Source: Deltaproteobacteria bacterium (lineage in GTDB: Bacteria > Desulfobacterota > Anaeroferrophillalia > Anaeroferrophillales > Tharpellaceae). Taken from it: a stretch of DNA of 61,868 nt. A program made the translations under genes and the position numbers. The DNA is taken from positions 1 through 61,868 of the forward strand of contig DAOVTG010000001.1 in the NCBI GenBank assembly GCA_030633185.1, given 5' to 3'. Below are positions 25,823 to 51,804 of the stretch, piece by piece. The stretch's first letter is position 1; each line of letters starts with the position of its first letter. Under the pieces are notes generated by a model. It worked only from the letters and a program-made list of their open reading frames with translations. It did no database searches and was not told the origin of the DNA.

Positions 25823-26992
25823 ATGTGGATTGATCGGACAATTACAAAAAAAATTTACCGTTCTACAGAATCTAGACCGGTTGTTATGCTGACAGGAGCT
25901 CGGCAAACTGGTAAAAGTTCTTTATTAAAGAGGCTTTTTCCCGAAAGTCGGTATATCACTTTTGATTATATCAGGCAGGTGGAGGCGGCCAAAGAGTCCC
26001 CACAACAATTTCTGAAATACTGTACTGGTCAAACAATCCTTGATGAAATCCAATATGTTCCAGAACTTTTTCGAGAACTCAAAATCCATGTCGACAATGC
26101 CCGTGATGTTTATGGAAAATGGATTATTACCGGTAGTCAACGCTTTGAATTGATGGAGCAAGTTAGCGAAAGTTTAGCCGGTCGTATTAGTGTTATTAAT
26201 CTTGAAACACTTAGTGCGAGAGAACTGCGGGAGAGTAGTTTTGAGTGTGTAGATGATTATCTTTGGCAAGGAGGTTATCCCGAGCTTTGGAGTAATCCGA
26301 GTCTGGATCTGGAAGATTTTTTCGAAAACTACATTAGAACCTATATTGAACGTGACTTAAAACAACTTATTGAGGTGAAAAATCTCAATGATTTTAGGCG
26401 TTTTATAAGAGTGCTTGCGGCTCGGATTGGCCAGCTTTTGAATTATCGAAATATTGCAAATGATGTCGGGGTTACGGATGTTACCGTTAAGCGTTGGTTG
26501 CATGCTTTGGAAATGGGTGGTTTAATCTATCTGTTACCTCCTTTTTTTACAAATATCGGCAAGCGTTTGGTCAAAGCTCCCAAGCTTTACTTTAGTGATC
26601 ATGGTCTGGCTTGTTATCTTCTTGGTATATCAGATGCAGATAAATGGTGTAATCATATGCATCGAGGTAACCTTTGGGAAAATTTTGTTTTACTGGAACT
26701 TATCAAGAACAATAATTTGATACCTGGCAAAGAGTTGTTCTTTTACCGTGACCAAAATGGTGTTGAGATAGACTGTGTTATTGAACAAGGAGACAGGATT
26801 ACACTGTTAGAAGCAAAAGCCGGGGAAAAAATTGATAACCGAAAGTTGAATTTTAATAAAGTTGTTCCTCTTCTCCAGAAAAACTATCAAATTGAGTGCG
26901 TAGTAGCGCACACTCCCGCTGACAACTCAATAGCGCAACTCAAAGACTACAAATCATTCAATCCACTTAGGGTCAATTTTACTCCGAAATAA
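25823..26992 (+). CDS. AAA+ ATPase with C-terminal DUF4143 / PD-(D/E)xK-like module, divergent paralogue of the preceding gene
   Basis: Walker A GARQTGKSSLLK, Walker B TILDEIQ, C-terminal VEIDCVI...TLLEAKAG. The ATG at 25823 (MWIDRTI) is preferred over the TTG at 25808. Confidence 0.8.
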   Translation: MWIDRTITKKIYRSTESRPVVMLTGARQTGKSSLLKRLFPESRYITFDYIRQVEAAKESPQQFLKYCTGQTILDEIQYVPELFRELKIHVDNARDVYGKWIITGSQRFELMEQVSESLAGRISVINLETLSARELRESSFECVDDYLWQGGYPELWSNPSLDLEDFFENYIRTYIERDLKQLIEVKNLNDFRRFIRVLAARIGQLLNYRNIANDVGVTDVTVKRWLHALEMGGLIYLLPPFFTNIGKRLVKAPKLYFSDHGLACYLLGISDADKWCNHMHRGNLWENFVLLELIKNNNLIPGKELFFYRDQNGVEIDCVIEQGDRITLLEAKAGEKIDNRKLNFNKVVPLLQKNYQIECVVAHTPADNSIAQLKDYKSFNPLRVNFTPK

Positions 26993-36083: not shown

Positions 36084-39029
36084 TTACAATTTGGTTGTGT
36101 TTAATAATAAGATCAAGCGACCATCACCCATAATTGAAGCCCCGCTGATCTCTTCTATATGAGCCAGGGTCTGGGGTAGGGGTTTGACTGCTATTTCCAT
36201 GTTGCGGACAAAACGATCGACAATGAAACCGATGGTGGCGTTACCGATTTTAATGATTACCAGAGAAATTTCTTGAGCCGGATTCAGACAATCTCGATCC
36301 CGGTGTTTGTCCCCCGGTTGGGCTAAGCGATTTTCCAAAAAATCAACTTCGATGACCTGGCCCCGGTAATGAAAGATGAGTCCATCCCCTGCCTTACGCA
36401 GTTCGCTGGGCATAATTTTAATGGTTTCTAAGACATGCTCGAAAGGTAGACCGTAAGACTGGCCGCCTGCTTCAATCAGCAGAATCACAATGATTCCCAT
36501 AGTCATAGGGATGGTCATGGTAAGTTTCGTGCCCGTACCCTCCTCCGAACTCAGTTGGATATGACCGTTCAGCGAATCAATCGTCGAGCGCACGACATCC
36601 ATGCCCACTCCGCGACCGGAGATATTGGTGGCCTGATCCATCGTTGAGAGACCGGCATGAAAGATAAGACCAAGAACTGCGGCTTCATCCATGCCGTCAA
36701 CATCAATACCGGAGTTCATGGCTTTAGCTACAAGTTTCTCTTTATTGATTCCGGCCCCATCATCACTGATCTGGATTATAAGGTTACTACCGAGCTGACT
36801 TGCTGAAAGAGTTACCGTGCCTTTTTTCGCTTTGCCTGTCGCCTCGCGCACTGTCGGAGACTCTATACCATGATCGCAGGCGTTACGGATCAAGTGAATT
36901 AAAGGTTCGGATAGGGTGTCGGCCACCTTTTTGTCGACCTCGGTATCCTCGCCTTTAAGGATGAGTTGGATATCTTTTTTCTGTTTACGGGCGACGTCAC
37001 GAACCACCCGGGTATATTTTTGAAAAATCCCTCTGATCGGGATCATCCGCATGGCCATGATACCATGGTGCATATTTTCTACGAGCCGGGTAAAAAGATG
37101 TAGGTTTTCTTTTAAGGACTTGGTTTGAGCGGCAAGTTCCTGAGCACCATTTATATTCTCCAGGTTATTAATTAAATACTCATAGGAGTTACGTGCCACC
37201 AGAAGCTCACCAACGAGATTGGAGAACTCCTCGATTTTGAGTTCATCAACCCGCATGGTGTGGGTTTCTTTCTCAATCGCCCTGGGCTTCATGGTCTGGG
37301 CAACCTCCATCAGAACCTGTTTTTTCAGGGCTTGATTAACCTCGGCCTTTGCCAGCTTGCCTTGATCAACCAGGATTTCACCGACGGGTTTCTGTTGGGC
37401 CAGGGCTTGAGAGAGATCCTTTTTGCTGACCTTGCCTTGTTCCACAAGGATTTCTCCCAATGGCTTTTGCTGTTCCAGGGCTTCGCTCAAATCCTGGCCG
37501 CTGATCTTACCGTCGGCTACCAGAATTTCGCCCACCGGTTTGGGTTCGCCGGTCAAACCGTCGATGAAGCTGACAATTTCACCAATGGCAGTTACCAGAG
37601 AGGATTCATCTCTATCGAGTGAGTCATGGGCTCGGAGCAGTAGTTTTTTCATGGTTGGTAGATCCACAAAACTACCGGCCCGCTCAAGACCACTCAAGGA
37701 GCGGGTTATGATCTCTCGATCCTCAGAGGCCAGAGGCGAGTTGCTATGCCTGGCCAAAATATCTTTATGCTGCATAACCTGATCGAGAAAAACCTCACGC
37801 ATATCTTCAGGCAGGTTAGCTAGTTCATCCCCGCCGGCAGGGGTTTCATTTGCAGTGCTGTCACGCTCTCCGGCCATAGCCGCTAATTCCTTATAGCCCG
37901 CCGGAAACTCATGTACGGTTTCTCCCTTGGACAATGAGTTAATAAGAGATTTCAGGCCATCCACACCGACCAATAGGAGGTCTATAATCTCAGCATTTGG
38001 TTTAAGCTCGTTTTTGCGGAGACGTACCAGCAAACTTTCCAGAACATGGCCGAAACGGGTGGTTATTTCAAGCTGGAGGTAATCAGCATCGCCCTTGATG
38101 GTATGAGCTCCGCGAAAGAGCTCATCCAGAGCATCTTGGCAACCACTTTTTTCGTAATTGATAACGGCCCGTTCCATGACTTCAATATGCTCTACGGCAT
38201 CGCTTAAAAAGAGGGCAATATCCTCTTCGTCAATTACCGGCAGCAGCATATCGGTTTCGCTATCATCAGTTTCGGCATCGCTGATGTTCGCAGCTTCCAT
38301 TCCCCCTTTACTAACCGCTATCAGGGTCGAGGATAGATGTTCGAGTTCGGTTTGGAGTTCGGTCAGGGGCAGGTTTTCATGGACATCCAACTGTTTGAGC
38401 CGGGCCAGAGTTTTTTCGAGTTTGGCCCCGGCTGAAACTATGGCGCCCAGATCATAGATCTGGGCGCCAGCCACGATAATATGAATTTCGCTATAAAGAT
38501 CATCAAGCAGATCCTGGTTTTGCGAATCGCTCTCAAGCTGGTCGAGGAACTTTCGGGCGGAGACCAAGGCGTCACTGGCCTCACTTATGAACTCTGTCGG
38601 GACGGCAGTTTTTTCACTCTCCTCTTTTTGGGGATTGGGAAAAGAGTTGCTACTTGGTGTTTTCTGGTAGGCGTCACGAAATTGAGTCACTAATTCATCG
38701 TCGCCGACCGGTTCCTCGTCATTTTCAAAAGCCTTAAGCATCAGGCTGATGCGATCAATTCCGGCCAAAATCAGATCTGCAATTTCAGGTTCCAGTTCGA
38801 CCTGATCTTTGCGCAAAGCATCGAGCAGACCTTCAAGGTGATGAGCAAAGCCGGAGACCGCATTTACCTCGAAAGTTCCGGCATTACCCTTGATGGTATG
38901 GATAGAACGAAAGATGGAGTGCATAACATCTTTGTCATCCGGGTTGGCCTCGGCCTGGAGGATATCATCGCTGGCTTTTTCCAGCAACTCTCGCGCCTCC
39001 TCTAAAAATTCTTTTTTAAAATCGTCCAT
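36084..39029 (-). CDS. cheA: CheA histidine kinase, first paralogue, with two Hpt domains and three tandem MshEN-like repeats
   Basis: Hpt1 FRSIHTIKGNAGTF and Hpt2 FRGAHTIKGDADYL; three 25-aa repeats P[VL]GEILVxxGKxxxxxxxxALxxQ; P4 LIHLIRNACDHGIE...GRGVGMDVV; P5. The ATG at 39029 (MDDFKKEF) is 2 nt after the cheY stop; the tracked TTG at 39038 is the alternative. Confidence 0.9.
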   Translation of the reverse strand: MDDFKKEFLEEARELLEKASDDILQAEANPDDKDVMHSIFRSIHTIKGNAGTFEVNAVSGFAHHLEGLLDALRKDQVELEPEIADLILAGIDRISLMLKAFENDEEPVGDDELVTQFRDAYQKTPSSNSFPNPQKEESEKTAVPTEFISEASDALVSARKFLDQLESDSQNQDLLDDLYSEIHIIVAGAQIYDLGAIVSAGAKLEKTLARLKQLDVHENLPLTELQTELEHLSSTLIAVSKGGMEAANISDAETDDSETDMLLPVIDEEDIALFLSDAVEHIEVMERAVINYEKSGCQDALDELFRGAHTIKGDADYLQLEITTRFGHVLESLLVRLRKNELKPNAEIIDLLLVGVDGLKSLINSLSKGETVHEFPAGYKELAAMAGERDSTANETPAGGDELANLPEDMREVFLDQVMQHKDILARHSNSPLASEDREIITRSLSGLERAGSFVDLPTMKKLLLRAHDSLDRDESSLVTAIGEIVSFIDGLTGEPKPVGEILVADGKISGQDLSEALEQQKPLGEILVEQGKVSKKDLSQALAQQKPVGEILVDQGKLAKAEVNQALKKQVLMEVAQTMKPRAIEKETHTMRVDELKIEEFSNLVGELLVARNSYEYLINNLENINGAQELAAQTKSLKENLHLFTRLVENMHHGIMAMRMIPIRGIFQKYTRVVRDVARKQKKDIQLILKGEDTEVDKKVADTLSEPLIHLIRNACDHGIESPTVREATGKAKKGTVTLSASQLGSNLIIQISDDGAGINKEKLVAKAMNSGIDVDGMDEAAVLGLIFHAGLSTMDQATNISGRGVGMDVVRSTIDSLNGHIQLSSEEGTGTKLTMTIPMTMGIIVILLIEAGGQSYGLPFEHVLETIKIMPSELRKAGDGLIFHYRGQVIEVDFLENRLAQPGDKHRDRDCLNPAQEISLVIIKIGNATIGFIVDRFVRNMEIAVKPLPQTLAHIEEISGASIMGDGRLILLLNTTKL

Positions 39030-39030
39030 C

Positions 39031-39387
39031 TCAACCAACCAGCATCTTTACATGTAAAACCAGGGTATTAGGTTTAACCGGCTTGACGATATAAAGATTG
39101 GCTCCGGCCAGGATAGCTTTCTCCTTGTTGGCGGCCTCGGCCTGGGTCGAGATCATGATGATTGGCGTCTCATTATCACTTTGTCGATATTTCTCGACAA
39201 AAACAATACCATCCATATTGGGCATATTGATATCCGAGAGGATAAGATCGTACTTATTGCTCAGGGCTTTTTCCAGAGCTTCGACCCCGTCCATGGCTCC
39301 ATCCGCTTTAAAACCGGCAGCTTTAAGCAAATTTGTATGAAAATTCCTGACAAAACGGGAATCGTCAACTACGAGTACTTTTTTCAT
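39031..39387 (-). CDS. cheY: Chemotaxis response regulator CheY
   Basis: 118 aa, VLVVDDSRFVR, LILSDINMPNMDG, VKP. Confidence 0.9.
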   Translation of the reverse strand: MKKVLVVDDSRFVRNFHTNLLKAAGFKADGAMDGVEALEKALSNKYDLILSDINMPNMDGIVFVEKYRQSDNETPIIMISTQAEAANKEKAILAGANLYIVKPVKPNTLVLHVKMLVG

Positions 39388-39405
39388 AATAAATAGCTCC
39401 GCACA

Positions 39406-39442
39406 GGGTAGAAAGGGTGAAGTGTGAAGGGTGAAGGGTGAA
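39406..39442. repeat. Tandem heptamer array (GGGTGAA-like, about 5 units) in the cheR-cheY spacer
   Basis: GGGTAGAA AGGGTGAA GTGTGAA GGGTGAA GGGTGAA on the plus strand (TTCACCC units on the coding strand), ending 19 nt upstream of the cheY ATG. Confidence 0.6.
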
Positions 39443-39480
39443 AAAATATCCTTTTGTCAAGTTATTGCTGAACTCGCAAG

Positions 39481-40317
39481 TCACTCTTTATAATAGACCA
39501 TGTGGTTGGCAGATTTTTTTATTTTGAAAGCCGGATTAATCCTGGAGGGTGATTCGCTGGAGCCCAGAAAAATAAAACCGCCATTATTTAGAGCCAGATA
39601 ATAGTGATCGACCACCTTTTTTCGGGAAATATTGTCAAAATAGATCAGGACATTACGGCAAAAAATGAAGTCAAAATCACGGCAGGGCCGAAGCTGTTTC
39701 CGATCACTGAGATTGATATGTTTAAACGTCACCATATCTTTGATCTCATCCGTGACTTTGAAGATCCCGGCCTTTTGGGTGAAATAGCGAGTTAGATATT
39801 CTTGGGGTACATCTTTGACACTGCGTCGCATATAGGCACCCTGTTGGGCTTTTTCGAGAATATTCAGATCAATGTCTGAAGCCATAATCTCGACATCCCA
39901 ACGTTGGAGATTCTCTAACATCTCCTTGACGATGATCGCTATAGTGTAGGGTTCCTCGCCACTTGAGCAACCGGCCGACCAGATGCGCAGGGTTTGGTCT
40001 CCAGCTCTCTTTTTTTGTTCGACAATCTTGTCCAGACCAAATTCGGCAAATGAGAGTAGTTGGTTAAAGTCACGGAAGAAATAGGTCTCATTTATCGTCA
40101 GTAAATTGAGGAGTTCCTGGAGTTCATGACCTTGATGATCGTGAAACTTGAGGTGGCGCAGATACTCATCGGTATTGGTTAGATCTAAAGCCACAACTCT
40201 TTTTTCCAGCCGTTTGGCCACATAATAGATCTTTTTTTGTTCGAAACGAATGCCGGCTTTTTGGTAAATCAGGTCGGCAAGTCGTTCAAATTCATCAACA
40301 TCAAGTTCAAATCGCAT
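39481..40317 (-). CDS. cheR: Chemotaxis protein methyltransferase CheR
   Basis: N-terminal helical CheR_N and the SAM-binding core (RIWSAGCSSGEEPYTIA, IFCRNVLIYF). Confidence 0.9.
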   Translation of the reverse strand: MRFELDVDEFERLADLIYQKAGIRFEQKKIYYVAKRLEKRVVALDLTNTDEYLRHLKFHDHQGHELQELLNLLTINETYFFRDFNQLLSFAEFGLDKIVEQKKRAGDQTLRIWSAGCSSGEEPYTIAIIVKEMLENLQRWDVEIMASDIDLNILEKAQQGAYMRRSVKDVPQEYLTRYFTQKAGIFKVTDEIKDMVTFKHINLSDRKQLRPCRDFDFIFCRNVLIYFDNISRKKVVDHYYLALNNGGFIFLGSSESPSRINPAFKIKKSANHMVYYKE

Positions 40318-40337
40318 AGCTTAAAGCTCCACTATAT

Positions 40338-41405
40338 TTACAGTAATTCCTTACAAAGTTCTCGTAAATCTTCATCTTTACTATCTTCCATGATCTTTAG
40401 AATCTGGTCTCGTTCGCCGGCAGCAGCTAAGAGACGAACACCCGGCAGGGCCATGGCCGGATCGTTGTTGGAGATTAAGAGTTGGCCCAATTCATTTAAG
40501 AGTGCAATTTTTAGTTTACTTCCGGCTCCCGATTGGCCCAGGAGTAAGCTCTCTACAGCTTGATAACGGGCCTCGTTTCCGGCTTCCGGGTTACGGATAA
40601 TATCAATGAGCAATTTGAGAATTGTCTCTTCGGCCAGAAGGTCGGGAAAACGTTTTAAGGCATCAGTTAACATATTGCTTACCTCCTCACCATAGAGATC
40701 AAGATCGGTGATTGAGGTGGCGAGCCGGATGATGGCTTCTCGTTCTCCGGCTTTGGCGGTAAGCTCAGTTAGCGGGGCCAGGTAGATGGGGTCAATTTCA
40801 GCACTACCGCCCTCCGGGATCAAGGTTGTGAGAATCTTAGTGATGGCATTGGCATCGGCTACCATCGTCATGGTTTCGAGGATGGCCGCCCGCAGCATCG
40901 GCTCATCACTCTCTTTAAAGAGGGTGACCATGTCGGCGACACCTTCGCTATCGGCCATACAGCCCAGATACTCGACCGCAGTGATCTGGACATTGGGCGA
41001 TTCGTCAAAGAGCCCGGCTCGTATCACCAGCAGGGTTTCATCCGAGCCGATCAAATACATTGCATCAAGCACCAGCTTGCGTACCTCCCGGTCACTGTGA
41101 TCAAGTTTGGAGGTCAGAAAAGCTACTGCATCTTCACCCCCTTCACCGAATATAATCACTGCCCCATTGCGTAAAAAGGCGTCAGTCGACATGAAAAATT
41201 CAAAAATCTGATCATGTACTTGAGTGATGTCAAGTCTCTGCAAGCCTGAAATAATGGCATTTTTCACCGCCACCGATTCCTCTTTGGCCAATTGATAGAC
41301 CAGCGGTACCGCCGCCTCAGCCCGGCCCAGATCAGCCAGATCTTCGGCCGCATAGAGTCGGGTAGCCTCATCCGGGCTTTTAAAATCTTTAATTAACTCT
41401 TCCAT
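40338..41405 (-). CDS. HEAT-repeat protein (PBS-lyase-HEAT-like)
   Basis: Repeated ~30-aa helical units (DEATRLYAAEDLADLG, DAFLRNGAVIIFGEGG, DREVRKLVLDAM, SPNVQITAVEYLG, EPMLRAAILETM). Confidence 0.7.
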   Translation of the reverse strand: MEELIKDFKSPDEATRLYAAEDLADLGRAEAAVPLVYQLAKEESVAVKNAIISGLQRLDITQVHDQIFEFFMSTDAFLRNGAVIIFGEGGEDAVAFLTSKLDHSDREVRKLVLDAMYLIGSDETLLVIRAGLFDESPNVQITAVEYLGCMADSEGVADMVTLFKESDEPMLRAAILETMTMVADANAITKILTTLIPEGGSAEIDPIYLAPLTELTAKAGEREAIIRLATSITDLDLYGEEVSNMLTDALKRFPDLLAEETILKLLIDIIRNPEAGNEARYQAVESLLLGQSGAGSKLKIALLNELGQLLISNNDPAMALPGVRLLAAAGERDQILKIMEDSKDEDLRELCKELL

Positions 41406-41427
41406 TAAAACCTCCTAGTAGAACCTT

Positions 41428-42495
41428 CTAGCCTACTGCACTAATAATCTCATCAGCGATATCCCAACTTGGTGCCACCACGTCAGCTCCGCCTCGTTCG
41501 ATAGCCTCTTTGGGCATGCCGAAGACGATGGCAGTTTCGTCGGATTCGGCGATCGTGCGACCGCCAAGTTCTCTGATTCGAACCATGGCATCGGCACCAT
41601 CATCACCCATGCCGGTCATCAGAACGCCGACGGTATCATCTCCAAATATCTCCATAACCGAGTCCATCATCACCTCTACCGATGGGACAAAGAGATGTTT
41701 GGGACGTACCGGAGTCCGGATAACTAGTTTGTGGCCCGGTCTTCTAAACAGGGTCAGGTGACGTCCGCCAGCAGCTAGATAGATGGTGCCGGGTTTTAGC
41801 TCCATACCGGTCTCGGCATGAACACAGTTCATGGGACAGGCTTGATCTAAACGTTGAGCAAAAGAGGCGGTAAAAGCGGCCGGCATATGTTGAACCATGA
41901 TAATCGCGGCATTAAGATCGGCCGGAATAAAAGGCAATACGTCAAAAATCGTCTTTGGGCCGCCAGTTGATATACCAATAACTATAGCTTTAAAACCTAA
42001 TCCTCTGGTTTTGCCTGCGACCGGTTTGCGGCTTGGCCTGAAGCGTTGTCCGGGGCTACGTTTAGGATCGGTTCGGTGGGGGCGTAATTTGTCCAGGGTG
42101 CCCTGGCTGGTGGCCGCTTTAAGTTTGGCAATAAGTTCTCGGGCGACCTCCTCCATATTAACCGAGACGGTGCCGCCGGGTTTGGCGATATAGTCAAAGG
42201 CACCCAGAGCCATTGACTCAAAAGTGGCCTCAGCTCCCTCCTCGGTCAGGGAAGATACCATAAGAACCGGAGCAATCTTCTCTTCAACAATGATCTGCAT
42301 GGCGCTGATACCATCCAGACCCGGCATATTGATATCCATGGTAATGACATCGGGCCGCAGCTCGCGGGCCTTGGCCACGGCGTCATTACCATCTCGGGCC
42401 GCAGAGATAACTTTGAAACCGCGATCCGATTCAATTATTTTCTTTAAACTCCGCCGCATCAGGGCGGAGTCATCACAAATTAGTACCTTTTTCAT
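41428..42495 (-). CDS. cheB: Chemotaxis protein-glutamate methylesterase CheB (REC plus CheB_methylest)
   Basis: REC (VLICDDSALMRR, VITMDINMPGLDG) and esterase core (IGISTGGP, MVQHMP, MTGMGDDGA). Confidence 0.9.
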   Translation of the reverse strand: MKKVLICDDSALMRRSLKKIIESDRGFKVISAARDGNDAVAKARELRPDVITMDINMPGLDGISAMQIIVEEKIAPVLMVSSLTEEGAEATFESMALGAFDYIAKPGGTVSVNMEEVARELIAKLKAATSQGTLDKLRPHRTDPKRSPGQRFRPSRKPVAGKTRGLGFKAIVIGISTGGPKTIFDVLPFIPADLNAAIIMVQHMPAAFTASFAQRLDQACPMNCVHAETGMELKPGTIYLAAGGRHLTLFRRPGHKLVIRTPVRPKHLFVPSVEVMMDSVMEIFGDDTVGVLMTGMGDDGADAMVRIRELGGRTIAESDETAIVFGMPKEAIERGGADVVAPSWDIADEIISAVG

Positions 42496-42756: not shown

Positions 42757-44715
42757 CTATTCATCTATCTTCATCTTTTTAACTGGTTTTTTTTGGGGTG
42801 CGGTTTTGGCCCGGGGTTTGACCTTTTTCTTCTCCATCGCCGCTATCTCTTTTTTATCATTGGTACTGAGTATCTCATTAATATCAAGCAGGAGAACCAT
42901 GCGTTTGCCTTGGTTGAGTTGACAAACTCCTTCTATAAAGCGGTTTTCGGTGTCACCGGTGACAATGCCTGGAGTCGGGGCGATATCGGCCTTGGGCAGG
43001 CGTAGAACTTCATTGACCTTGTCGACCCGCAGTCCGGTGCGACGGCCTTCAATATCAACGATGATAATTCGGGTGGAGTCATCTTGGTCACGAGATTCGA
43101 GACCAAACAAAGTTCGGATATTAAGCACCGGGATGACATTGCCGCGCAGGTTGGTGACCCCGTCAATAAAGGCCGGAGATTTTGGTACCTGAGTGATCTC
43201 TTCTAAGCGATTAATCTCTTGGACCTGCATGATCCGGACACCATACTCCTCTTTGTCAACAATAAAGGTGACCAGTTGTTCTTCATCCATATCTTTTTGG
43301 GCCAGGCTGATCTCATTTTCAGTTTCGGCATCAGCAGTTTTTTTTACAGCTTCACTCATCTTGCCAAGCTCTTCACTCTCCTCATGGCTGATCAATGATG
43401 ACTCTTCCATGATCATAATCAAGCGTTTGCCATTGTCGAGTTTGGCGACCCCTTTCAACTCTTTTTTGGCTGAGGAAGCAGCCCAGGGGGGGGCATCGAT
43501 AGTCGATTTTGGGATTCGCAAAACCTCGTTTACCGAGTCGACAATGAAACCGACATGAATATCACCCGTCTCCACTACCAGAATGCGCTGGAACTCATTG
43601 ATATTTTTTGCCAGCTTATTCTTGATTGCGATAAATTCTGAGAGGAGAATTTTTTCCAGAGGGGTAATATGCTCTTCGAGATAGAGGACGGCTTCGTCCT
43701 GAGAATGGCTGCGGAGTTTCAGGGCCTCGGCCCCAAACTCATGAAAATTGATGTGGGGGATTCTGATATCATTTATCAGGTCACCGACATCGCCAGAGCG
43801 ATCCTTGGTCAACCATTGACCTAAGGCACATTTAGTCGGATCCAGAGCCCCGTTAAACGGGGCGTTGCTCTGCAAAGACTGTTTAAGATCCTTGAGCCAT
43901 TGTTCATGGATAACCATTATCTCATTGATCTCGTTATGGAACTGTTCTATCAGGGAGGTGTTGCCCAACATGGTCCGCAGATCGAGAATCGGCAGGAGTT
44001 GGTTGCGAATGGTGAGTAGCCCTCGAACATAGTTTGCGGCATTGGGTACTTCGGTAATCTCCCCCACCCGAAGGATCTCCCGCACCCGGTTTATATCGAA
44101 AGCGTACTCCTCGTCTGCGACCTTAAAGGATATAAGTTGTTCTTCATCGATGTTTTTTTCAACCGCATTTATTGCCGTTTTCCCAGCCTGTAGAGCCGCT
44201 TGCTTTTGATCTGACTTAACCTCTTTCGTTTGAACCTGCACAACTTCATCGAGATCCAGGATGAGAATGAGACGAGCCCCATCGTTCATCTTGACTACGC
44301 CGGAGAGGAACTCTCGATCTACCCCTTTGCAAACTGCCGGCGGTTCTTCCATCTGCTCTTTTTTGGTATGCAGTACCTCGCGGACATCATCGACAATCAG
44401 GCCGGTGGCTGTGGTACCAGTTTCAATTACTAATAGTCGGGTGCTGTCATCGGCCTCTTTATGTTCCAGACCAAAACGTTGCCGGCTATTTATGGCGGGC
44501 AACACCGAACCTCGCAAGTTACAGATCCCGGCGACATAGTCGGGGCTCTGGGGAATCGGGGTAATATCCGGTACCCGGACAATCTCCCGCACCGTATTGA
44601 TATCTACGCCAAACTCCTCATCAGCCAGGGCAAAAACCACGAGTTGGCCTTCGGCTGAATCGAGAGATTGGGCGGTTTCCATATTTTCAGACATAATTAA
44701 CTCCGTTTTAATCAT
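42757..44715 (-). CDS. Triple CheW-domain scaffold with a CZB (chemoreceptor zinc-binding) domain inserted in the middle CheW domain
   Basis: Three CheW-like units (QLVVFALADEEFGVDINTVREI, QLISFKVADEEYAFDINRVREI, QLVTFIVDKEEYGVRIMQVQEI). CZB signature H270xxW...C296ALGQW...H321INFH325. An alternative start is the ATG at 44694 (GGAG RBS). Confidence 0.85.
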   Translation of the reverse strand: MIKTELIMSENMETAQSLDSAEGQLVVFALADEEFGVDINTVREIVRVPDITPIPQSPDYVAGICNLRGSVLPAINSRQRFGLEHKEADDSTRLLVIETGTTATGLIVDDVREVLHTKKEQMEEPPAVCKGVDREFLSGVVKMNDGARLILILDLDEVVQVQTKEVKSDQKQAALQAGKTAINAVEKNIDEEQLISFKVADEEYAFDINRVREILRVGEITEVPNAANYVRGLLTIRNQLLPILDLRTMLGNTSLIEQFHNEINEIMVIHEQWLKDLKQSLQSNAPFNGALDPTKCALGQWLTKDRSGDVGDLINDIRIPHINFHEFGAEALKLRSHSQDEAVLYLEEHITPLEKILLSEFIAIKNKLAKNINEFQRILVVETGDIHVGFIVDSVNEVLRIPKSTIDAPPWAASSAKKELKGVAKLDNGKRLIMIMEESSLISHEESEELGKMSEAVKKTADAETENEISLAQKDMDEEQLVTFIVDKEEYGVRIMQVQEINRLEEITQVPKSPAFIDGVTNLRGNVIPVLNIRTLFGLESRDQDDSTRIIIVDIEGRRTGLRVDKVNEVLRLPKADIAPTPGIVTGDTENRFIEGVCQLNQGKRMVLLLDINEILSTNDKKEIAAMEKKKVKPRAKTAPQKKPVKKMKIDE

Positions 44716-44718
44716 TCT

Positions 44719-46644
44719 TTATACATTCTGCATCTCGTCAGCTTGACTGGCGATCTCTTCGATGGCTTCGGCGATATTTTCCATGCCTTTATTGCCTTGA
44801 GTTGCTGCCGTGGAGGCCTCACTTGCGGCCTTAGTCGCAAATTCCGCCGCCTCGGCAATCTCAGCTACCGCCTTATTGACCTGAGCCACAGCTCCCAAGG
44901 CCTGTTTGGCGGTACCATTGATATCCTCAATGCTGGTCTGAACGACATCGGTCTCTTTTTCAATTCGCTCCAGGTTGGAGGAGGATTCTTTGGCATTTTC
45001 CACATCTTGAAGCGAAGTCTTGCCCGCTAGATCAATATCTGCAGCAACAGTGGTGATCTGATCTCGCATCTGGCGTACCATGTCTTTGATCTTGTCAGCA
45101 TTAGTAGATGAATCATCAGCCAAAGTGCGGATATCAGCGGCAACTACAGAAAAGCCGCGGCCAAATTCACCGGCGCGCGCCGCTTCGATGGAGCCGTTAA
45201 CAGCCAACATATTGGTTTGCAATGTAACGTTAACGATTTGATCGACAATTTTGTCAATACGGTTGGTGCGATCCTGAAGGTTTTGGATGTTTCGAGATGA
45301 ATCCAGGGAGGCATTGGCGGCCTTGGAGATGTTGGCGATCAGATTGCCGACATTAACCTTATTGGCGGCCAAAATTTTCTTCAAAGTTTCAATTTTTTCA
45401 GCCGCATCCGTGGACTCTACATCGACATTTTTGGCTCCCTCTTCGACGCGAGATCCCATCTCTATGCATTTTTCAGAAATTTTTGTCTGGTTCTCAGCCG
45501 ATTTGGCGATCTGCTCGATAGCCGCCATAATCTGGCCTGCCGAAGTTGTTGATTCTTCGATGTTGGCGGAGAGCTCTTCGGCGGCCGCAGCCACCTCTTC
45601 CGCCGATTTCTGGGTGTCGGTGGCATTTTTCAGGGAATCGGAGAGTTCTGCGAGCCCTTCGGCAGCGGTCTGCATCTCGGCAAACGCTTTGTTTTGCTCA
45701 TCTAAAGACTTATTGGACTCCTCGCAGGCACTGGCTTGTTCATTGGTTGATCGGCCAATCTCCTCTGCGGCCTTAAAGAACTCGTTGGCACCGTCCAGAA
45801 CCTCCGCAGCTCCTTGATCCACCTTTTTGCTGCCGGTATTTATGGCCAAAAAGATCTCGCTTATCTGATTTAAGTCCTCAGTGATCTGTTTGGATTTTTC
45901 CATCTCTTCACGGCCGGCATTGCCGGAGGCATCCACATCATTAACGACCTGTTGAACCTGTTCTTTGATCTCATCGACCACGTTACGAATGTTACGGGCT
46001 GAGCTTTCTGAAATTTCGGCCAGGTTGCGCACCTCATCCGCAACTACGGCAAAACCGCGGCCATGCTCTCCGGCTCGGGCTGCTTCAATTGCCGCATTTA
46101 AGGCTAGTAAGTTGGTCTGGTCGGCAATGCGGACAACGGTGCCGACAATTTCACCGATCTCTTCAGAATTTTGTTCCAGAACCTTGATCATCTTGGTTGA
46201 CTCAAGATTGCCTTCAACCGATTTTTTAACTCCGGAGATCAAGGTGTCGATGTTTTTATTAATGGAGTCGATCAACTCCTGTAGAGTTGCGATTTTTTCC
46301 AGGTTGGCCTTGCTTAAACCTAAACAGTTCTCGCTGGCCTCCAGGATCTGTTCAATTTCAGTTTTGGAGTTTTCGGCTGCCGAGGCCGCATGTTCAGATT
46401 TGACGGAGATATCTTCCATGTTGCCTGTCAACTCTTCCGAGGAGGCACCAGCTTGTTCCAGAGAAGCCGACATCTCCTCGACTGCCGTTGCCATACGCTC
46501 GGCTAAGGCCTGAGTTCGGGCCAAAGTTCGGGCTTGAGTTTTGGCCTGGGCCTGTTTTTTTGCTGCCGAACGCTTGGCGGCGAGATCTTCGTGGTCTTCG
46601 TTTTTACCGGTAATGCCTGTGGGACGCGCTAGTTTTCTTGCCAT
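44719..46644 (-). CDS. Soluble methyl-accepting chemotaxis protein with two tandem MCP-signal (MA) domains and a basic N-terminus
   Basis: No TM segment. Two complete hairpin tips, [34 protein letters not shown] and [34 protein letters not shown], lie exactly 300 aa apart. The start MARKLARP at 46644 has AAAGGAG upstream. Confidence 0.85.
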
Positions 46645-46754
46645 TTTAAACTCCTTTTTACTCTTTAGATTACGGAAAAGAGGTGGGGGCAATCCCGCCA
46701 TTTTCCTTAAGTTATCGAACTTTTACAAACTGAATAGTTACTTTTTGTTATCTT

Positions 46755-48242
46755 TTACAATATCTGGATACCGCATTCTGCATTGGCTTTACCGCTATCC
46801 AGATCTACGGCGTTGACGGAGAGAACTCCATTGGGGTCGATACTGAAAGTGACATCAATATTGGGCTCTCCTTGGGCTTTCTCTGCGTCCATTTCCAACT
46901 GAAACACACCCAGCGAAGTGAACTCTTCTGACCCTTCATGGCCTCTATCCTGCATGACATGAATAGCGACTTCCGGTTGGTTGTTAGCGGTTGTCGTAAA
47001 AAGTCTGGTCTCAGCGCAAGGGTAGGGGGTGCCTGCGGCGATCAAGGGGATAAAAATGCCTTGATCATCCTCCAAACCAAGATTGTGAGAGGTGATATCG
47101 TGAAATTCCATGCCTGCAATTTCATCGTTCAAAATGCCTGCCAGAATCCCGGCCCCTCGGGCCACCGCTTCATCAGGGTTGACTTGGCGTTTAAAAAGTC
47201 GCTCACGGGTTTCAGCCATGGTCTCCGGATCGGGGCTTAAAAAGCGGCATACCATCTCTTCTACCGCCGGAATCCGGGTGGCACCGCCGACCAGTATGAC
47301 TGAATCCACCCAGTTCGGTTCAAGCTCTGCTCGGGCAAACGTCTCGATTAGATATTTTTCAATATCATGGATAATATCTTTGCTGATCTCGCTGAATTTA
47401 TCCCGACTCAAACTTTGATTCAGATGGATGGGGCCCTCGTCGCTTACAGCAATATAAGGAATCATGACGGTGGTCTCGGTAGAGGAGGAGAGGTCGATTT
47501 TGGTCTTTTCGGCATAAATCACGAGTTGCTGAAAGGCGATCGGGTCGTTACGCAGGTCATAGGGCGAATTAAGGTCGAAAGTTTCAAGGGTATGCTCAAT
47601 AATTTGTCGGTCAAAATTTATGCCGCCAACCGTGGTTGCTCCACCCACCCCACGAACTCTGAAAACTTTGTCGCTGTATTCCATCAAGGTTATATCCAGA
47701 GTGCCGCCGCCCAGATCCAGCACCAAAAGTCGAGCTTGCTCTTGAGTACTGCCCAGGCCATAAGTGAGAGCTGCAGCCGTGGGCTCATTGAGTAATTTGT
47801 GAACTTTGATGCCAGCTATAGTGGCGGCCCGCAGAGTGGCTTGACGTTGATTGTCATTAAAGTAGGCCGGTACCGTGATTACCGCATCGGTGATCTCTTG
47901 CTGCAGGTACTGCTCAGCGCAGTTCTTGAGATGGCTGAGAATTAAAGCTGAAATCTCTTCCGGCAGCAAACTCCGGTCGCCAATTGTATAGGGCTCCGTT
48001 GTCCCCATCATAAGTTTGACATTGCTGACTGTGGAGTCGGCATTGAGTACGGCCTGATTTAGAGCCATTTCGCCGACAATAATCTCCTGTTCAGATTTGA
48101 AACAAACCACTGATGGTGTCGTCCGGCTGCCACGTTCATTCGGGATGATTCGCGGTTGTCCATTTTTGATAAATGAGATCAGGGAATTGGTGGTGCCAAG
48201 ATCGATCCCGACAATTCTTGGCTTCGTCGTTGGTTTAGTCAT
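46755..48242 (-). CDS. Hsp70/DnaK-family protein lacking the C-terminal helical lid
   Basis: IVGIDLGTTNS phosphate-1 motif, VLDLGGGTLDITL, ILVGGATRIP, followed by a beta-sandwich-like region only (about 495 aa). Confidence 0.8.
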   Translation of the reverse strand: MTKPTTKPRIVGIDLGTTNSLISFIKNGQPRIIPNERGSRTTPSVVCFKSEQEIIVGEMALNQAVLNADSTVSNVKLMMGTTEPYTIGDRSLLPEEISALILSHLKNCAEQYLQQEITDAVITVPAYFNDNQRQATLRAATIAGIKVHKLLNEPTAAALTYGLGSTQEQARLLVLDLGGGTLDITLMEYSDKVFRVRGVGGATTVGGINFDRQIIEHTLETFDLNSPYDLRNDPIAFQQLVIYAEKTKIDLSSSTETTVMIPYIAVSDEGPIHLNQSLSRDKFSEISKDIIHDIEKYLIETFARAELEPNWVDSVILVGGATRIPAVEEMVCRFLSPDPETMAETRERLFKRQVNPDEAVARGAGILAGILNDEIAGMEFHDITSHNLGLEDDQGIFIPLIAAGTPYPCAETRLFTTTANNQPEVAIHVMQDRGHEGSEEFTSLGVFQLEMDAEKAQGEPNIDVTFSIDPNGVLSVNAVDLDSGKANAECGIQIL

Positions 48243-48279
48243 TTTAATCAATCAATCCATTATCCAGCTATTCACTAAT

Positions 48280-48669
48280 TTACCAATTTAAAACTGCAAG
48301 ATTTTCCGCAGCTCTCTCATTTTCCGAGTCAATTTTCAGTACCTGTTCAAACATCGCTATGGCTTTTTCTTTGAAACCCAATTCGAAATAGACCAGGCCC
48401 AGGTTGTTCATGGCCTTGATGTTGTTTGGTTGTTGATAATGTACGGCTTGTAAAAAGCCCATGGCATCAATGTAGTTCTCTTTGTTCAAGCAGACCAGCG
48501 CCTGTTGGAACAGATTTTGGATCTGCTGGTCACTTTTTTGTTCTAACTCTTCAATGCGGTGGCGTAAACTTGAAATCTCTTGACTGTTTTCCGGACGCGT
48601 ATCAACTAAGGGCTGGACGCCTTTTTCAAACAGCAACTCTCGAAGAGATATTTTTGCTTTTGCACTCAT
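48280..48669 (-). CDS. Small TPR-repeat protein
   Basis: Coiled N-terminus, then TPR-like units (YIDAMGFLQAVHYQQPNNIKAMNNLGLVYFELGFKEKAIAMFEQVLKIDSEN). The ATG overlaps the parA-like stop (ATGA). Confidence 0.7.
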   Translation of the reverse strand: MSAKAKISLRELLFEKGVQPLVDTRPENSQEISSLRHRIEELEQKSDQQIQNLFQQALVCLNKENYIDAMGFLQAVHYQQPNNIKAMNNLGLVYFELGFKEKAIAMFEQVLKIDSENERAAENLAVLNW

Positions 48670-49424
48670 AATATCTCAATCTTCTGAGTCAGTTTTGCGT
48701 AATCAGAAGCGCCGATACTCTTTTCGTCGTATTCGAAAATTGTTTGACCATGGGCCGGGGCTTCGGCCAAAGTGATATTGGTACGGATGGGAGGTAACAG
48801 TTTGTCCGGGCCAAAAGTTTTCGTGATCTCTTTACCAATCTCCTTGGCCAGTTTGGTGTTTTTATTGTAAAGGGTGGGAATGATGCCGGCCATGCGAAGT
48901 TTCGGATTATAGCTGGCGTTCAACTTGTAAATAACCTGCATCATTTCGGCCAAGCCTTCCATGGCAAGAAAATGCAAAGGCATAGGGATGTAGACCTCGC
49001 GGGCTGCAATAAGGCCGGAAATCATCAATAGCCCCAAGGTCGGCGGCGGATCGATAATAATAAAATCATAATTAACCAACTGGTCGTTCAAATGCTCGGC
49101 CAGTATTATCTCGCTATCTTCCCGGCCGGTATTTTCGAGCTCAAAACCACCCAGTTCACGGGATGCCGGTAAGAGCGAGAGGCCAGCAATATGGCTGGCT
49201 AAAATCACTTCCCCTATGGGCACTCGGTCTAAAAGGACATCGGCCAGGCTGCTTTTGACCATGCCCGGCTTAAAACCCAGACCAATCGTGGTATGGGATT
49301 GGGGGTCGATGTCAACCAATAAGACCCGATGTCCCCGAATGACCAGGCCATGGGCAACATTGACGGCTGTAGTAGATTTCCCACAACCACCTTTACGGTT
49401 GGCAAAGATACAGATTCTGGTCAT
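48666..49424 (-). CDS. ParA/MinD-family deviant Walker-A ATPase at the head of the chemosensory cluster
   Basis: ANRKGGCGKSTTAVNVA (KGGxGKS/T), IIIDPPP Walker B-like. The start MTRICIF at 49424 has GGAGA upstream. Confidence 0.85.
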   Translation of the reverse strand: MTRICIFANRKGGCGKSTTAVNVAHGLVIRGHRVLLVDIDPQSHTTIGLGFKPGMVKSSLADVLLDRVPIGEVILASHIAGLSLLPASRELGGFELENTGREDSEIILAEHLNDQLVNYDFIIIDPPPTLGLLMISGLIAAREVYIPMPLHFLAMEGLAEMMQVIYKLNASYNPKLRMAGIIPTLYNKNTKLAKEIGKEITKTFGPDKLLPPIRTNITLAEAPAHGQTIFEYDEKSIGASDYAKLTQKIEIL

Positions 49425-49652
49425 TTTTTTTCTCCGCAGGTTGACTACAATTTCCGTAAACACTCAGCCTACCTAATGCGTCTGAAATTTCTCGCAAGAG
49501 AACAAACATAATCCTTATTTTACAACATTTTGTGTTGTAATATAAGTAAAAAAAAAGACTAAAATACAACGATAAAACATCTATTAAAACTAGAGGTTTA
49601 AAGAGGGAGAGAGAAAAAGGTTGTTTCATGTTTACTTTTAGAGGTTAGTATG

Positions 49653-49685
49653 TTAGCCATCCTATTACTTTTTACGAGTTCATCA
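49653..49685 (+). repeat. Degenerate copy D of the TTAGCCATC...CATCA box
   Basis: TTAGCCATCCTATTACTTTTTACGAGTTCATCA versus TTAGCCATCCCGTGACTTTTCACGAGGGCATCA at 10046-10078. Confidence 0.45.
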
Positions 49686-49768
49686 GGTGAATGATATATA
49701 GTTATGGGATCTTTTTACCTGTCGACTTGCCGTCGACTTGTCTTGGCTCAGAGAGTAAGGAGTTTTTA

Positions 49769-50185
49769 ATGGAATTTTTCGAGTGGTTGGACAGTTATTC
49801 AATTCATAATCCCAATATTGATGCTGAGCATCAAATTTTTATCAAGTTGATTAACAGGTTGATTTCCGCAAATAATGATGGCCTGGACGACTATTACAAA
49901 GAACGTCTGAGTCTGGAAATTCAAAAATATGCCGAGTTTCATTTTGTCAGTGAAGAAAATTTTATGATTGATATCGACTATCCTTTACTGGAGGAACACC
50001 AACAACAGCATACTTTAATTCTGGAAAAGTTTAATGTTGAGATGAATTATATTGAGCTCGGCCAAAAGAGTTATGCGGAATTTATAACCTTTTTGGTTGA
50101 TTGGCTTACAGAACATACGCTTACGCAGGACAAAAAAATCGGTGATTTTGTTAAAGAGAGCAGTGACCCGAATGGTAGTCGGTAA
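49769..50185 (+). CDS. Hemerythrin-like (bacteriohemerythrin) metal-binding protein
   Basis: [22 protein letters not shown]...FHFVSEE...HQQQH...[10 protein letters not shown] gives the His/Glu/Asp ligand pattern. AAGGAG RBS. The stop overlaps the next ATG (TAATG). Confidence 0.8.
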
Positions 50186-51804
50186 TGAACGATAATTTTC
50201 CTTGTAAAACTTTGCTGATTTTAAGTGATCATCCTGAAAATATGGAGCTTTTAGGAGATGCTTTAAAGGATGAATATTGCATTGTTAAAGAGGAACTCGA
50301 CCGTAATGGTCTAAAGAATCCTTCCCCCTTGGCGAAGGCGGATTTAATTCTTTTAGACACCAATTTGATGGGCCGTAATGGTTTAGATCTTCACTGCTGG
50401 TTGCAGGAAGTTCCGGGAATAGAGCAGGTTCCGGTTATGATTCTCTCGGCTCTTAATCACGAGGAGGATATTGTTGCGGGTTTTGCGGCCGGGGCGGTTG
50501 ATTACATAGCCAAGCCTTATAAGCTTTCAATTATGAGAGCCCGGGTCAAAACTCAGTTTAAACTTTTGCACGCCTTAGAGATTGCCGAGCAGGCCAATCA
50601 GGCAAAAAGCGAATTTTTGGCCAATATGAGTCATGAAATACGGACTCCGCTCAATGCCATAATCGGTATGAACCATTGTGCTCTGGAGTCGTCGCCTCCG
50701 GACAATGTCAGGAGTTTTTTAGAAAATGTAAAAATCTCGGCTGATTCGCTTCTCGCGGTTGTCAATGATGTTCTCGATTTTTCCAAGATAGAAGCGGGTC
50801 GGCTTGAGTTGTTAGAGAGGCCGTTTGATTTGGCCTGCTTAATAGAAGAACTTCTGGAAACATACTCGGTTGGCGCGAAAGAGAGAGGCAACCAGATTGT
50901 CCAGGAGGTCGACAGCCACATCTTTCAGGCATTGATCGGCGATGACCACAGATTGCGCCAGGTTCTGGTTAATCTGATCAGTAATGCGGTAAAATTTACT
51001 GAAAACGGTAAAATTATTCTTGGGGTTTTTATCAAACAGGAATCCGAGACTGAGATTCTACTGCAATTTAAAGTCTCTGATACCGGTATAGGTATACCTC
51101 TTGAGGTTCAGAACAGTATATTCAAGAGCTTTACTCAGGCTGATTCGACGATCACCAGGCGCTACGGTGGTACTGGTCTGGGGTTGGCAATTTGTCAACA
51201 GTTGGTTCAGTTGATGGGAGGTAGTATCGGGCTTGAAAGTCGTTCCGGGGTTGGCAGTACCTTCTCTTTTACGGCTCAATTTAAGAAAGCTCTCCCGGAA
51301 ACGTGCCCGGCTGAAGTTGAAGGATCTCTTGACGAGTCGGTGTTTCTAACTCCCTTACGCATCCTTGTGGTTGAAGATAACCAGTTCAATCGGGAATTGG
51401 TCCAGTTTCTTCTTGAAAAAGAGGGGCACCAGGTAACGACGGTTGAAGATGGGCTTAAAGCGTTGGAAAGCCTGATGCTGGATAGTTTTGACGCTGTTTT
51501 AATGGATGTCCAGATGCCGGAGATGGATGGAATTACGGCCACGAAATTTATCCGGGATTGTGAAAAAAGTAGTCTCGATGATCGTTCTCCTCATCAGAAA
51601 ATTGGGGCTCGGCTTACGACAAAAATTAAAGGGGGTCGCATCCCGGTTATCGCGATGACCGCCCATGCCATGTCCGGTGATCGTGATAAATGTTTAGAGG
51701 CCGGTATGGATGACTATATTACCAAACCTTACCAGCCGGATGAGATTTTCAAAGTACTCAGACGAGTTTTAGCATGCGAGGTACAAAATGGGAAATCTGA
51801 TTGA
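50185..51804 (+). CDS. Hybrid histidine kinase (REC-HisKA-HATPase_c-REC)
   Basis: N-terminal REC ([13 protein letters not shown]...AKP), H-box [15 protein letters not shown]-boxes, C-terminal REC ([11 protein letters not shown]...[11 protein letters not shown]...TKP). Confidence 0.85.

Follow-up and report, generated by a model that had tools for sequence, protein, structure and literature searches.

The F9 class of chemosensory systems forms cytoplasmic receptor arrays that are well imaged structurally, yet their nucleation, positioning, inheritance, removal and purpose are poorly understood (PMC7534058, PMC9321776), and a gene cluster from a Deltaproteobacteria bacterium (assembly GCA_030633185.1, contig DAOVTG010000001.1) raises the question of which proteins might carry out these steps. 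We refer to the whole stretch of DNA that was analysed, 61,868 nucleotides (nt) long, as the window, and number the loci that are related to it or were recovered in a genome scan from L001 on. An initial annotation had described a chemosensory cluster in the window that is headed by genes for a deviant Walker-A ParA/MinD ATPase, a 129-amino-acid (aa) tetratricopeptide repeat (TPR) protein overlapping it by ATGA and an Hsp70-family protein of about 495 aa without the helical lid, and had noted a soluble methyl-accepting chemotaxis protein (MCP) with a strongly basic N-terminus next to them. The three gene identities were borne out in every particular, all on the minus strand, and the ParA/TPR/Hsp70 trio is an accessory module of the F9 system that is conserved in two phyla. 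The TPR protein is called the adaptor below. The features at the centre of the argument are as follows:

48666-49424, minus strand: ParA-like ATPase, from Pfam and a start fixed by homologues
48280-48669, minus strand: TPR adaptor of 129 aa, from Pfam and an AlphaFold2 model
48619-48660, minus strand: N-terminal ParB-like peptide of the adaptor, KAKISLRELLFEKG, from motif comparison, coordinates verified
46755-48242, minus strand: lidless Hsp70 of 495 aa, from Pfam, NCBIfam and AlphaFold2
44719-46644, minus strand: DosM-type soluble receptor of 641 aa, from two Pfam MCPsignal matches
46603-46644, minus strand: two-part N-terminal tag of DosM, from an alignment of homologues

The F9 class is defined by DosM (a receptor with double signalling domains), a triple CheW and the gene order DosM-W3-B-.-R-Y-A (PMC9321776, S6 table), and in Vibrio cholerae it forms two-layered cytoplasmic arrays stabilised by DosM (PMC9321776, PMC7534058; our definition of DosM is taken from these two papers). 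The window chemosensory cluster belongs to this class, because its receptor with two signalling domains, its multi-CheW protein and its CheB-HEAT-CheR-CheY-CheA order match the published definition. The receptor contains two MCPsignal stretches (Pfam, 2.4e-61) with two visible hairpin-tip motifs and has no transmembrane segment (maximum Kyte-Doolittle value over 19 residues, 0.95), the adjoining CheW protein has at least three CheW domains, and the genes run in the order ParA, TPR, Hsp70, DosM, CheW3, CheB, HEAT, CheR, CheY, CheA. The initial annotation was right about the chemosensory cluster and missed its class, which DosM and CheW3 reveal. V. cholerae F9 cluster I (DosM, triple CheW, CheA1) has the same tandem-domain receptor, multi-CheW protein and CheB-HEAT-CheR-CheY-CheA order; the window differs from it in a CZB domain within the CheW protein and in two extra CheA genes, and differs from the published F9 orders in general, in which dosM is the first gene and neither ParA, TPR nor Hsp70 genes are named. 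The rest of the F9 core in the window consists of:

42757-44715, minus strand: multi-CheW scaffold of the CheW3 type, 652 aa (Pfam CheW 5.9e-106, four stretches)
residues 270-332 of this scaffold, minus strand: CZB zinc-binding domain (Pfam 3.8e-10)
36084-42495, minus strand: remainder of the F9 core as a block (open reading frames (ORFs) and Pfam), made up of the next five genes
41428-42495, minus strand: CheB (ORF and sequence)
40338-41405, minus strand: HEAT-repeat protein (Pfam)
39481-40317, minus strand: CheR (ORF and sequence)
39031-39387, minus strand: CheY (ORF and sequence)
36084-39038, minus strand: CheA of 984 aa (Pfam)

The gene-neighbourhood survey that the initial annotation had called for was run, and it showed the trio to be conserved next to che genes in relatives. 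Ten Hsp70 homologues with 48-63% identity were retrieved, and all ten (10/10) lie in a context of ParA, a small (TPR) protein, Hsp70, an MCP of ~645 aa, a multi-CheW protein and CheB; nearly all of the best 120 Hsp70 homologues have a length of ~500 aa and a source in Desulfobacterota or Syntrophomonadaceae. Firmicutes have the trio within the cluster, flanked by cheA and dosM, a position that matches the three unnamed dots between these genes in the published order [RYA...DosMW3BYXX] of Syntrophomonas wolfei and Syntrophothermus lipocalidus (PMC9321776, S6 table). We then considered a scan of 185,579 species genomes, for which the conserved N-terminal region of DosM served as the seed, Hsp70, MCP or CheW core seeds having been rejected because their conserved stretches are common to every DnaK or MCP. 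A tblastn survey sorted the 77 loci that were recovered: the full module lies directly upstream of dosM in ~37 of them (including L017 and L039), ParA and TPR without Hsp70 in four (L021, L025, L077 and L083) and probably in two more (L022 and L064), ~22 have no module upstream, and ~12 have too little upstream sequence, all counts referring to loci found with a seed from the tag-bearing region of DosM, from which the fraction of all F9 systems with the module is not derivable. The loci without the module are mostly extra DosM paralogues in Syntrophomonadaceae metagenome-assembled genomes (MAGs) with a single full locus at another place; four belong to Desulfobacterota (L019, L020, L023 and L035), and of these L019, L020 and L035 are tagged. 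The closest match of the scan lies on a MAG contig of 4.8 kb (L008), to which the DosM N-terminal query aligns at 96% identity.

Per genome, the Syntrophomonadaceae MAGs have a single module alongside as many as 7-8 DosM paralogues with the tag, as in one MAG with L024, L029, L048, L061, L067, L072 and L080 and another with L027, L042, L058, L076, L078, L081 and L084. The orphan paralogues in this family are all tagged and mostly have no adjoining module, as expected if one module serves several receptors. At L039 the trio is followed by three tandem DosM-CheW3 pairs. Two further loci look like intermediates of decay or rearrangement: at L017 (1541-8419) an insertion of ~7 kb separates the adaptor gene from hsp70, and at L068 (9783-9926) only the last ~48 codons of hsp70 are left upstream of dosM. 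Two plasmid matches, H5 (Deferribacter, a non-F9 che locus) and H8 (Acetoanaerobium, an unannotated record), were not used.

The ParA-like protein is encoded in an ORF spanning 48666-49463 with a GTG at 49463, and since its homologues begin MTR/MSR...FANRKGG, translation is taken to start from the ATG at 49424 (MTRICIFANRKGGCGKST, 252 aa). Its Pfam matches are AAA_31 (2.7e-45) and CbiA (3.9e-21), and its closest solved relatives are chromosomal Soj/ParA proteins (E ~1e-44). The deviant Walker A motif NRKGGCGKST, which includes the signature lysine of the ParA/MinD superfamily, the Walker A' motif VDIDPQ and the Walker B motif FIIIDPPP are kept in 44 module ParAs, so that the assignment as a deviant Walker-A ParA/MinD ATPase is secure. 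The protein has no C-terminal membrane-targeting helix. In HpSoj the continuous basic patch that binds DNA nonspecifically consists of K199, K227, K230 and K247 (PMC6393308); 43 of the 44 module ParAs have the Arg of P[IV]R[NMT][DN]I[KST]LAEAP, a motif that corresponds to the Soj IPRNVRL DNA-binding loop (PMC6393308), and this Arg adjoins the K227 position. With respect to a ParABS system, the locus has no partner ParB with helix-turn-helix (HTH) and CTPase parts, the neighbouring protein having TPR matches only (Pfam/NCBIfam) and no more than the short N-terminal peptide in common with ParB, and NCBIfam partition models score far below their cut-offs at the locus.

Translation of that neighbouring protein, the adaptor, starts at an ATG overlapping the ParA stop codon (...TTATGA...), and direct reading of this ATGA together with the Pfam matches (TPR_2, 2.7e-09; TPR_1, 8.5e-08; also TPR_8) agrees with the initial annotation. 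Its AlphaFold2 model (predicted local distance difference test score, pLDDT, 86.6) has residues 1-25 at low confidence or disordered with a short helix over the motif described below, then a long helix (26-62), then two TPR repeats and a capping helix (66-128); the fold is a generic three-helix-pair TPR, with the TPR domains of HOP, SGT and CHIP among the natural Foldseek matches. An adaptor-type protein sits between parA and hsp70 in nearly all related loci, and these small proteins have a common N-terminal motif, which takes the form [KR]x(0-2)LG[MIKT]GLD[LV]LL in Firmicutes (e.g. MAKNKKLGMGLDLLL and MAANKHLGKGLDILL) and G[TS]xLx[DE]LLxQKG[VI] in Desulfobacterota, including the window, with SLGTGLDELL, IGTGLDELL and LGTKLEDLL as intermediate forms; K6, S8, L9, L13 and K16 are invariant in close homologues. 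The Firmicute peptide MAKNKKLGMGLDLLL resembles residues 1-10 of HpParB, MAKNKVLGRG, which were crystallised on HpParA and belong to a tail whose basic residues stimulate the ParA ATPase (PMC11229316). Partners of ParA/MinD ATPases generally act via short basic N-terminal extensions grafted on an interaction domain, and the activators in ParA-ParB, McdA-McdB and PomZ-PomX are built in this way, like the window adaptor (PMC7993993). The adaptor N-terminus is thus predicted to be a ParB-like motif that binds ParA and activates its ATPase, and because it carries this peptide the adaptor is probably the activating partner of ParA. It differs from ParB in lacking the HTH, CTPase and parS-binding parts, in having a two-repeat TPR as the interaction domain and in having a protein lattice as the presumed cargo.

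A homologue search by word index gave 9 proteins, enough for a shallow alignment and too few for a survey. A profile search with the adaptor alignment among 1.84 billion representative proteins returned 50,285 matches swamped by generic multi-repeat TPRs, with ~11 small adaptor-like proteins within the top 150, and was unusable for estimating the size of the family. Receivers recur at the head of the module, either in Desulfobulbia fusions (L002, 8073-9956; L009, L011 and L012), as a separate REC-NMT1_2 gene upstream of parA (L093, 4260-6029), or as small REC or HTH-REC genes directly upstream of parA (L090, 6499-6861; L091, 6475-6837; L092, 5735-6175; L001, 8230-8787), and the window has no receiver gene at this position; the recurrence hints at phosphorylation control of positioning. 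A tblastn search upstream of parA with the window CheY found none even at the annotated L001 and L090-L092 and was discarded as too insensitive.

The receptor that follows the trio carries a tag at its extreme N-terminus. Homologues place the start of DosM at coordinate 46644, and in the window the tag reads MARKLARP with TGITGK directly after it, followed by the acidic stretch NEDHEDL; across the lineage it takes the form MA[KR]KLx[KR]P, 0-14 variable residues, TG[IL][TAV]xK, an acidic stretch and the helix start ...ARTLA[KR]QQAxAER. It is present in most DosM N-termini of the 77 scanned loci and at all loci adjoining a module except frameshifted or variant cases, occurs at four more divergent loci as well, and is unique to DosM among the proteins of the 62-kb window; two tagless loci of the scan, L023 and L056, also have no module. 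Outside the lineage we compared three proteobacterial F9 clusters (Methylosinus, Sphaerotilus and Eleftheria), in which no TPR or Hsp70 gene was found: their DosM proteins begin MTIVKKY, MALVTKH and MSLVRKA, have no tag and have only the helix start RKRARTLAKQQ in common with the window lineage. The basic stretch noted earlier is this start of the helical bundle, whose core is common to all DosM proteins examined, and the module-specific part of the DosM N-terminus is the first ~14 residues only. Of the initial description, the soluble receptor and its assumed start hold, and most of the basic stretch proves generic to DosM. A ParA with 33% identity to that of the window is encoded downstream of cheA in Methylosinus, so the arrangement of ParA may differ in other F9 lineages. 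In proteobacterial F9 clusters a conserved hypothetical gene of ~78-80 aa directly follows cheA (L085, 16159-17308; L087, 15641-15877; L088, 14886-15128), and in Methylosinus the ParA family gene comes after it.

The third member of the trio is an Hsp70 (Pfam HSP70, 3.4e-137) with an ORF of 498 aa (46755-48251), in which the ATG at 48242 gives 495 aa, the same length as a 97%-identical database protein. It consists of a complete nucleotide-binding domain, an interdomain linker and a beta-sandwich substrate-binding domain, and ends ...AECGIQIL. Profiles, an alignment with DnaK and an AlphaFold2 model all confirmed that the helical lid is missing: NCBIfam DnaK profiles are covered just to positions 488-489 of 596-625, and the protein scores below the cut-offs of all NCBIfam DnaK and HscA models; the alignment with Geobacillus DnaK extends no further than the last beta strand and residue 489 of the ORF (498 aa); and the model (62 homologues; pLDDT 93.3; predicted template modelling score, pTM, 0.92) has beta strands only after residue 371, those of the substrate-binding domain running from 379 to 490, with no lid helices and the last five residues disordered. 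Across 119 family members the catalytic motifs DLGTTNS, NEPTAAAL and DLGGGT and the equivalent of Lys70 are invariant or nearly so, and the equivalents of the DnaK pocket residues F426, V436 and I438 are kept, whereas the arch Met404 is replaced by Asp, His or Asn, Ala429 by Val or Thr, and Leu397 by His in 115/119. Conserved catalytic motifs and pocket together with changed arch residues indicate a working ATPase with a re-shaped binding cleft. Relative to DnaK there is an 11-residue insertion at residues 339-349 (47196-47228, minus strand), around ETMAETRERLF, which is modelled as an extra helix of the nucleotide-binding domain and is moderately conserved in the clade. An EEVD-like C-terminus was rejected, since the tails after the last strand are variable across the family. 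In 74 of 147 family members the protein ends hydrophobic-x-hydrophobic-hydrophobic, typically ARRGKGLTVL ([KR]RGxxLx-hydrophobic-hydrophobic), as seen in homologues P0049-P0099 and at L005-L007, L090 and L091 (the window tail lies at 46755-46780); this motif resembles the adaptor motif LGxGLDxLL and could be a docking site for ParA or TPR, or a pseudo-substrate.

The two halves of the tag behave differently with respect to this gene. Among the Hsp70-bearing loci, 43/44 have TG[IL] or a near variant (TRITVK, TGIVAH) in the DosM tail, the exception being L060 with GDIAVK, whereas TG[IL] is found in none of the five ParA and TPR loci without Hsp70 (0/5), whose tails read TGKAVDK, KKGTTKV, EGKPNVK, KPGKAAEK or nothing comparable and which all keep MAKKLxKP (Fisher p = 3e-6 for the association of Hsp70 with TGIT, with relatedness not corrected for). 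As judged from these sequences, the second half of the tag goes with the Hsp70 gene. In a tree of ParA, L021, L025 and L083 form one clade nested among Hsp70-bearing loci, and L077 lies on a separate branch; L022 is outside the tree as its contig ends before parA. Desulfonema limicola has Hsp70 at the locus and Desulfonema magnum (L025) is without it, as is Desulfatirhabdium. Because one clade of three loci, two probable members on truncated contigs and one further locus keep ParA and TPR alone, the Hsp70 is an optional layer of the module.

How might these parts act on the array? In the mechanism that we propose, ParA would dimerise with ATP and bind a surface, for which the nucleoid is the most likely choice given the resemblance of the protein to Soj and its lack of a membrane helix; the N-terminal ParB-like peptide of the adaptor would bind ParA and stimulate its ATPase, and the TPR domain would hold the cargo, in the simplest case the DosM tail with its MA[KR]KLx[KR]P motif, so that the spacing and inheritance of the array would resemble those of plasmids or carboxysomes. 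The lidless Hsp70 would be a client-dedicated chaperone that binds the adjacent TG[IL][TAV]xK motif of the disordered DosM tail, and in doing so would either keep DosM competent for assembly or loosen the lattice, such that arrays could be built, split and dismantled on demand. This picture, in which the cytoplasmic array is positioned by ParA together with the adaptor while the Hsp70 is a dedicated chaperone of the DosM tail, is a proposal whose chances we regard as evenly balanced, with higher confidence that the trio is a positioning module of the F9 array and lower confidence in the individual binding assignments. Only tentatively do we extend it to a lidless Hsp70 that, via TG[IL][TAV]xK, would serve as a dedicated remodeller or loader of the receptor lattice and, with ParA and the adaptor, would make assembly, splitting, positioning and dismantling of the array ATP-driven, an extension that we consider doubtful.

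Client-dedicated Hsp70s are exemplified by HscA, with the LPPVK motif of IscU, and by Hsc70, which uncoats clathrin; both have lids and dedicated J-proteins (HscB and auxilin). By analogy with HscA/IscU, the window may combine an Hsp70 paralogue beside one client, a short linear motif in the disordered tail of that client and an altered cleft, the differences from HscA and Hsc70 being that the window Hsp70 is lidless, that no J-protein lies nearby and that motif binding is inferred. The StkA precedent cited in the initial annotation is correct, in that this short DnaK homologue of Myxococcus xanthus (540 aa) acts upstream of the Dif chemosensory pathway (PMC4319316); stkA, however, is encoded with stkB and stkC and not in a che cluster, regulates exopolysaccharide and has no known ParA, TPR or DosM partner. 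For the positioning half, ParC-ParP of Vibrio has the same two-part design of an ATPase and a dedicated array-linking adaptor (PMC5706961, PMC7534058). ParP has a CheW-like array-integration domain and serves polar membrane arrays via HubP, whereas the window adaptor is a TPR protein without a CheW-like domain (TPR matches and no CheW match in Pfam, hence no AIF domain of the ParC-ParP type) and its arrays are predicted to be cytoplasmic.

Several observations weigh against the proposed mechanism. Its binding assignments are inferred from motif resemblance, gene order and co-variation. The Soj DNA patch is partly kept in the module ParAs, the K230 equivalent being Lys or Arg in 28/44 and Thr in the window ParA and the K247 equivalent being variable among the 44. 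A Foldseek search with the adaptor model returned generic or designed consensus TPRs only (root-mean-square deviation ~1 Å over 79 columns) and gave no clue to a ligand. The peptide is not always an N-terminal extension, since four Desulfobulbia loci encode REC-NMT1_2-TPR fusions in which the adaptor follows the other two domains and the peptide lies ~470 residues in. Neither the Pfam-scanned proteins of the cluster nor ten related loci include a J-domain protein or an exchange factor. The co-variation of Hsp70 with TGIT amounts to roughly two independent loss events, because three of the Hsp70-less loci form one clade and L077 branches apart; the Hsp70-less genomes could encode an Hsp70 elsewhere; and L019, without any module, still has TGIAVK.

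The closest contender for the positioning half comes from PpfA-TlpT of Rhodobacter sphaeroides. The initial annotation had invoked ParA precedents of this kind, which are real: PpfA/ParA homologues occur in che operons of 37% of the species surveyed (PMC2829493), and TlpT, a cytoplasmic receptor with a basic N-terminal extension beside a che-operon ParA-family ATPase as in the window, is the suggested activator of PpfA (PMC7993993). Transferred to our locus, the basic DosM tail would activate ParA directly, and the TPR protein and Hsp70 would be a co-chaperone/chaperone pair serving only the folding or assembly of the long coiled-coil receptor. MA[KR]KLx[KR]P, which lies at the extreme N-terminus, is basic and nearly invariant and is kept wherever ParA is kept, including at Hsp70-less loci, may indeed itself activate ParA, in which case no ligand would be assigned to the TPR domain, and this is a further point against our mechanism; TPR proteins are moreover classic Hsp70 co-chaperones, and HOP, SGT and CHIP are among the natural matches of the adaptor model. 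The TPR protein nevertheless stays with ParA where the Hsp70 has been lost (L021, L025, L077 and L083), which argues against a primary role as an Hsp70 co-chaperone, the Hsp70 lacks an EEVD-type tail and is variable at the C-terminus in the family, and the adaptor N-terminus is the closer match to the ParA-binding peptide of ParB (PMC11229316). PpfA-TlpT also differs in belonging to another chemosensory class, in having no Hsp70 and in using the receptor as the proposed activator, where the window has a separate TPR protein bearing the ParB-like peptide. We rate this alternative as unlikely: the receptor N-terminus suggested by the initial annotation as the ParA partner survives as a rival candidate, and the ParB-like peptide of the TPR protein is at least as good.

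Two other arrangements of the same parts seem improbable to a similar degree. The basic DosM tail could tether the array to nucleoid DNA, leaving ParA, the adaptor and Hsp70 only to regulate or release the tether, much as FrzCD attaches to the nucleoid by the positive charge of its N-terminal tail and brings signalling complexes to that site (PMC5716589). The charge pattern would suit such a role, DosM residues 1-14 having 4 Lys/Arg and no acidic residue and residues 26-50 having 6 basic residues and 1 acidic one, but the basic helix start also occurs in the DosM of clusters without the module, and the tag is a short, sequence-specific motif pair with a conserved Pro and TGIT, then the acidic NEDHEDL; because the tag is positionally conserved, recognition by a protein fits better than electrostatic DNA binding. 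Alternatively, the Hsp70 itself, clamped on TGIT, could be the ATP-regulated coupler between array and ParA via the C-terminal [KR]RGxxLx tail found in about half of the family, with the TPR protein as a second activator or regulator. The tails of the 74/147 members are similar to the adaptor motif LGKGLDLLL, and a ParA/MinD ATPase that has two activators is already known in PomZ (PMC7993993); against this, the C-terminal motif is missing or degenerate in many Desulfobacterota, the window tail AECGIQIL is without basic residues, and a hydrophobic C-terminus, whose last five residues are disordered in the model, could equally be a pseudo-substrate folding into its own cleft. Finally, ParA and Hsp70 are very common families and the window trio is at the edge of the cluster, as would suit an unrelated partition/chaperone cassette that happens to lie beside che genes, which we consider extremely improbable: all ten contexts seeded with Hsp70 show the linkage, the module and the receptor tag vary together, the trio is inside the cluster (cheA-dosM) in Firmicutes, and the recurrence of the same four-gene order in two phyla speaks decisively against chance adjacency.

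The surroundings of the module in the window go well beyond the canonical F9 gene set. The segment 27079-39038 (minus strand) includes three CheA genes (984, 780 and 700 aa) in one co-directional cluster, together with a HEAT-REC protein, a CheW-REC (CheV-like) protein, a stand-alone histidine kinase, an Hpt protein and several receivers. The CZB domain within the CheW scaffold is likewise present at L002; a sensory-type domain in a baseplate scaffold is unusual, and the published F9 survey reports CZB in just two DosM homologues. Divergent from the module, at 49691-51804 (plus strand), are genes for a hemerythrin-domain protein (164 aa) and a hybrid histidine kinase with receivers at both ends, a pair of possible oxygen- or iron-linked regulators of the cluster, and the che cluster is bordered at its other end by an AAA_14/DUF4143 ATPase gene of opposite orientation (25808-26992, plus strand). 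A promoter and terminator scan of 46600-49800 gave counts not above shuffled expectation and was uninformative.

ParA genes in che operons, F9 arrays, PpfA-TlpT and ParC-ParP are known already. In the searched literature there was no description of a TPR adaptor with a ParB-like peptide, of an F9-linked lidless Hsp70 clade or of a two-part DosM tag, and no paper describing the combined ParA/TPR/Hsp70 module, whose genes PMC9321776 leaves unnamed, in agreement with the initial annotation, which had described it as not known to be characterised. Collectively, these data suggest an undescribed way of positioning and remodelling cytoplasmic receptor arrays. The module gives concrete candidates, down to short peptide motifs, for the nucleation, positioning, inheritance and removal of F9 arrays, and the rule of a basic N-terminal peptide grafted on an interaction domain would be extended to TPR as a new type of adaptor and to a cargo not covered so far. 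If the client assignment of the Hsp70 holds, it would be a second bacterial client-dedicated Hsp70 besides HscA, naturally lidless and acting on a signalling lattice; and if it also remodels that lattice, this would be the first chaperone-assisted turnover of otherwise ultrastable arrays and the first Hsp70 coupled to ParA positioning.

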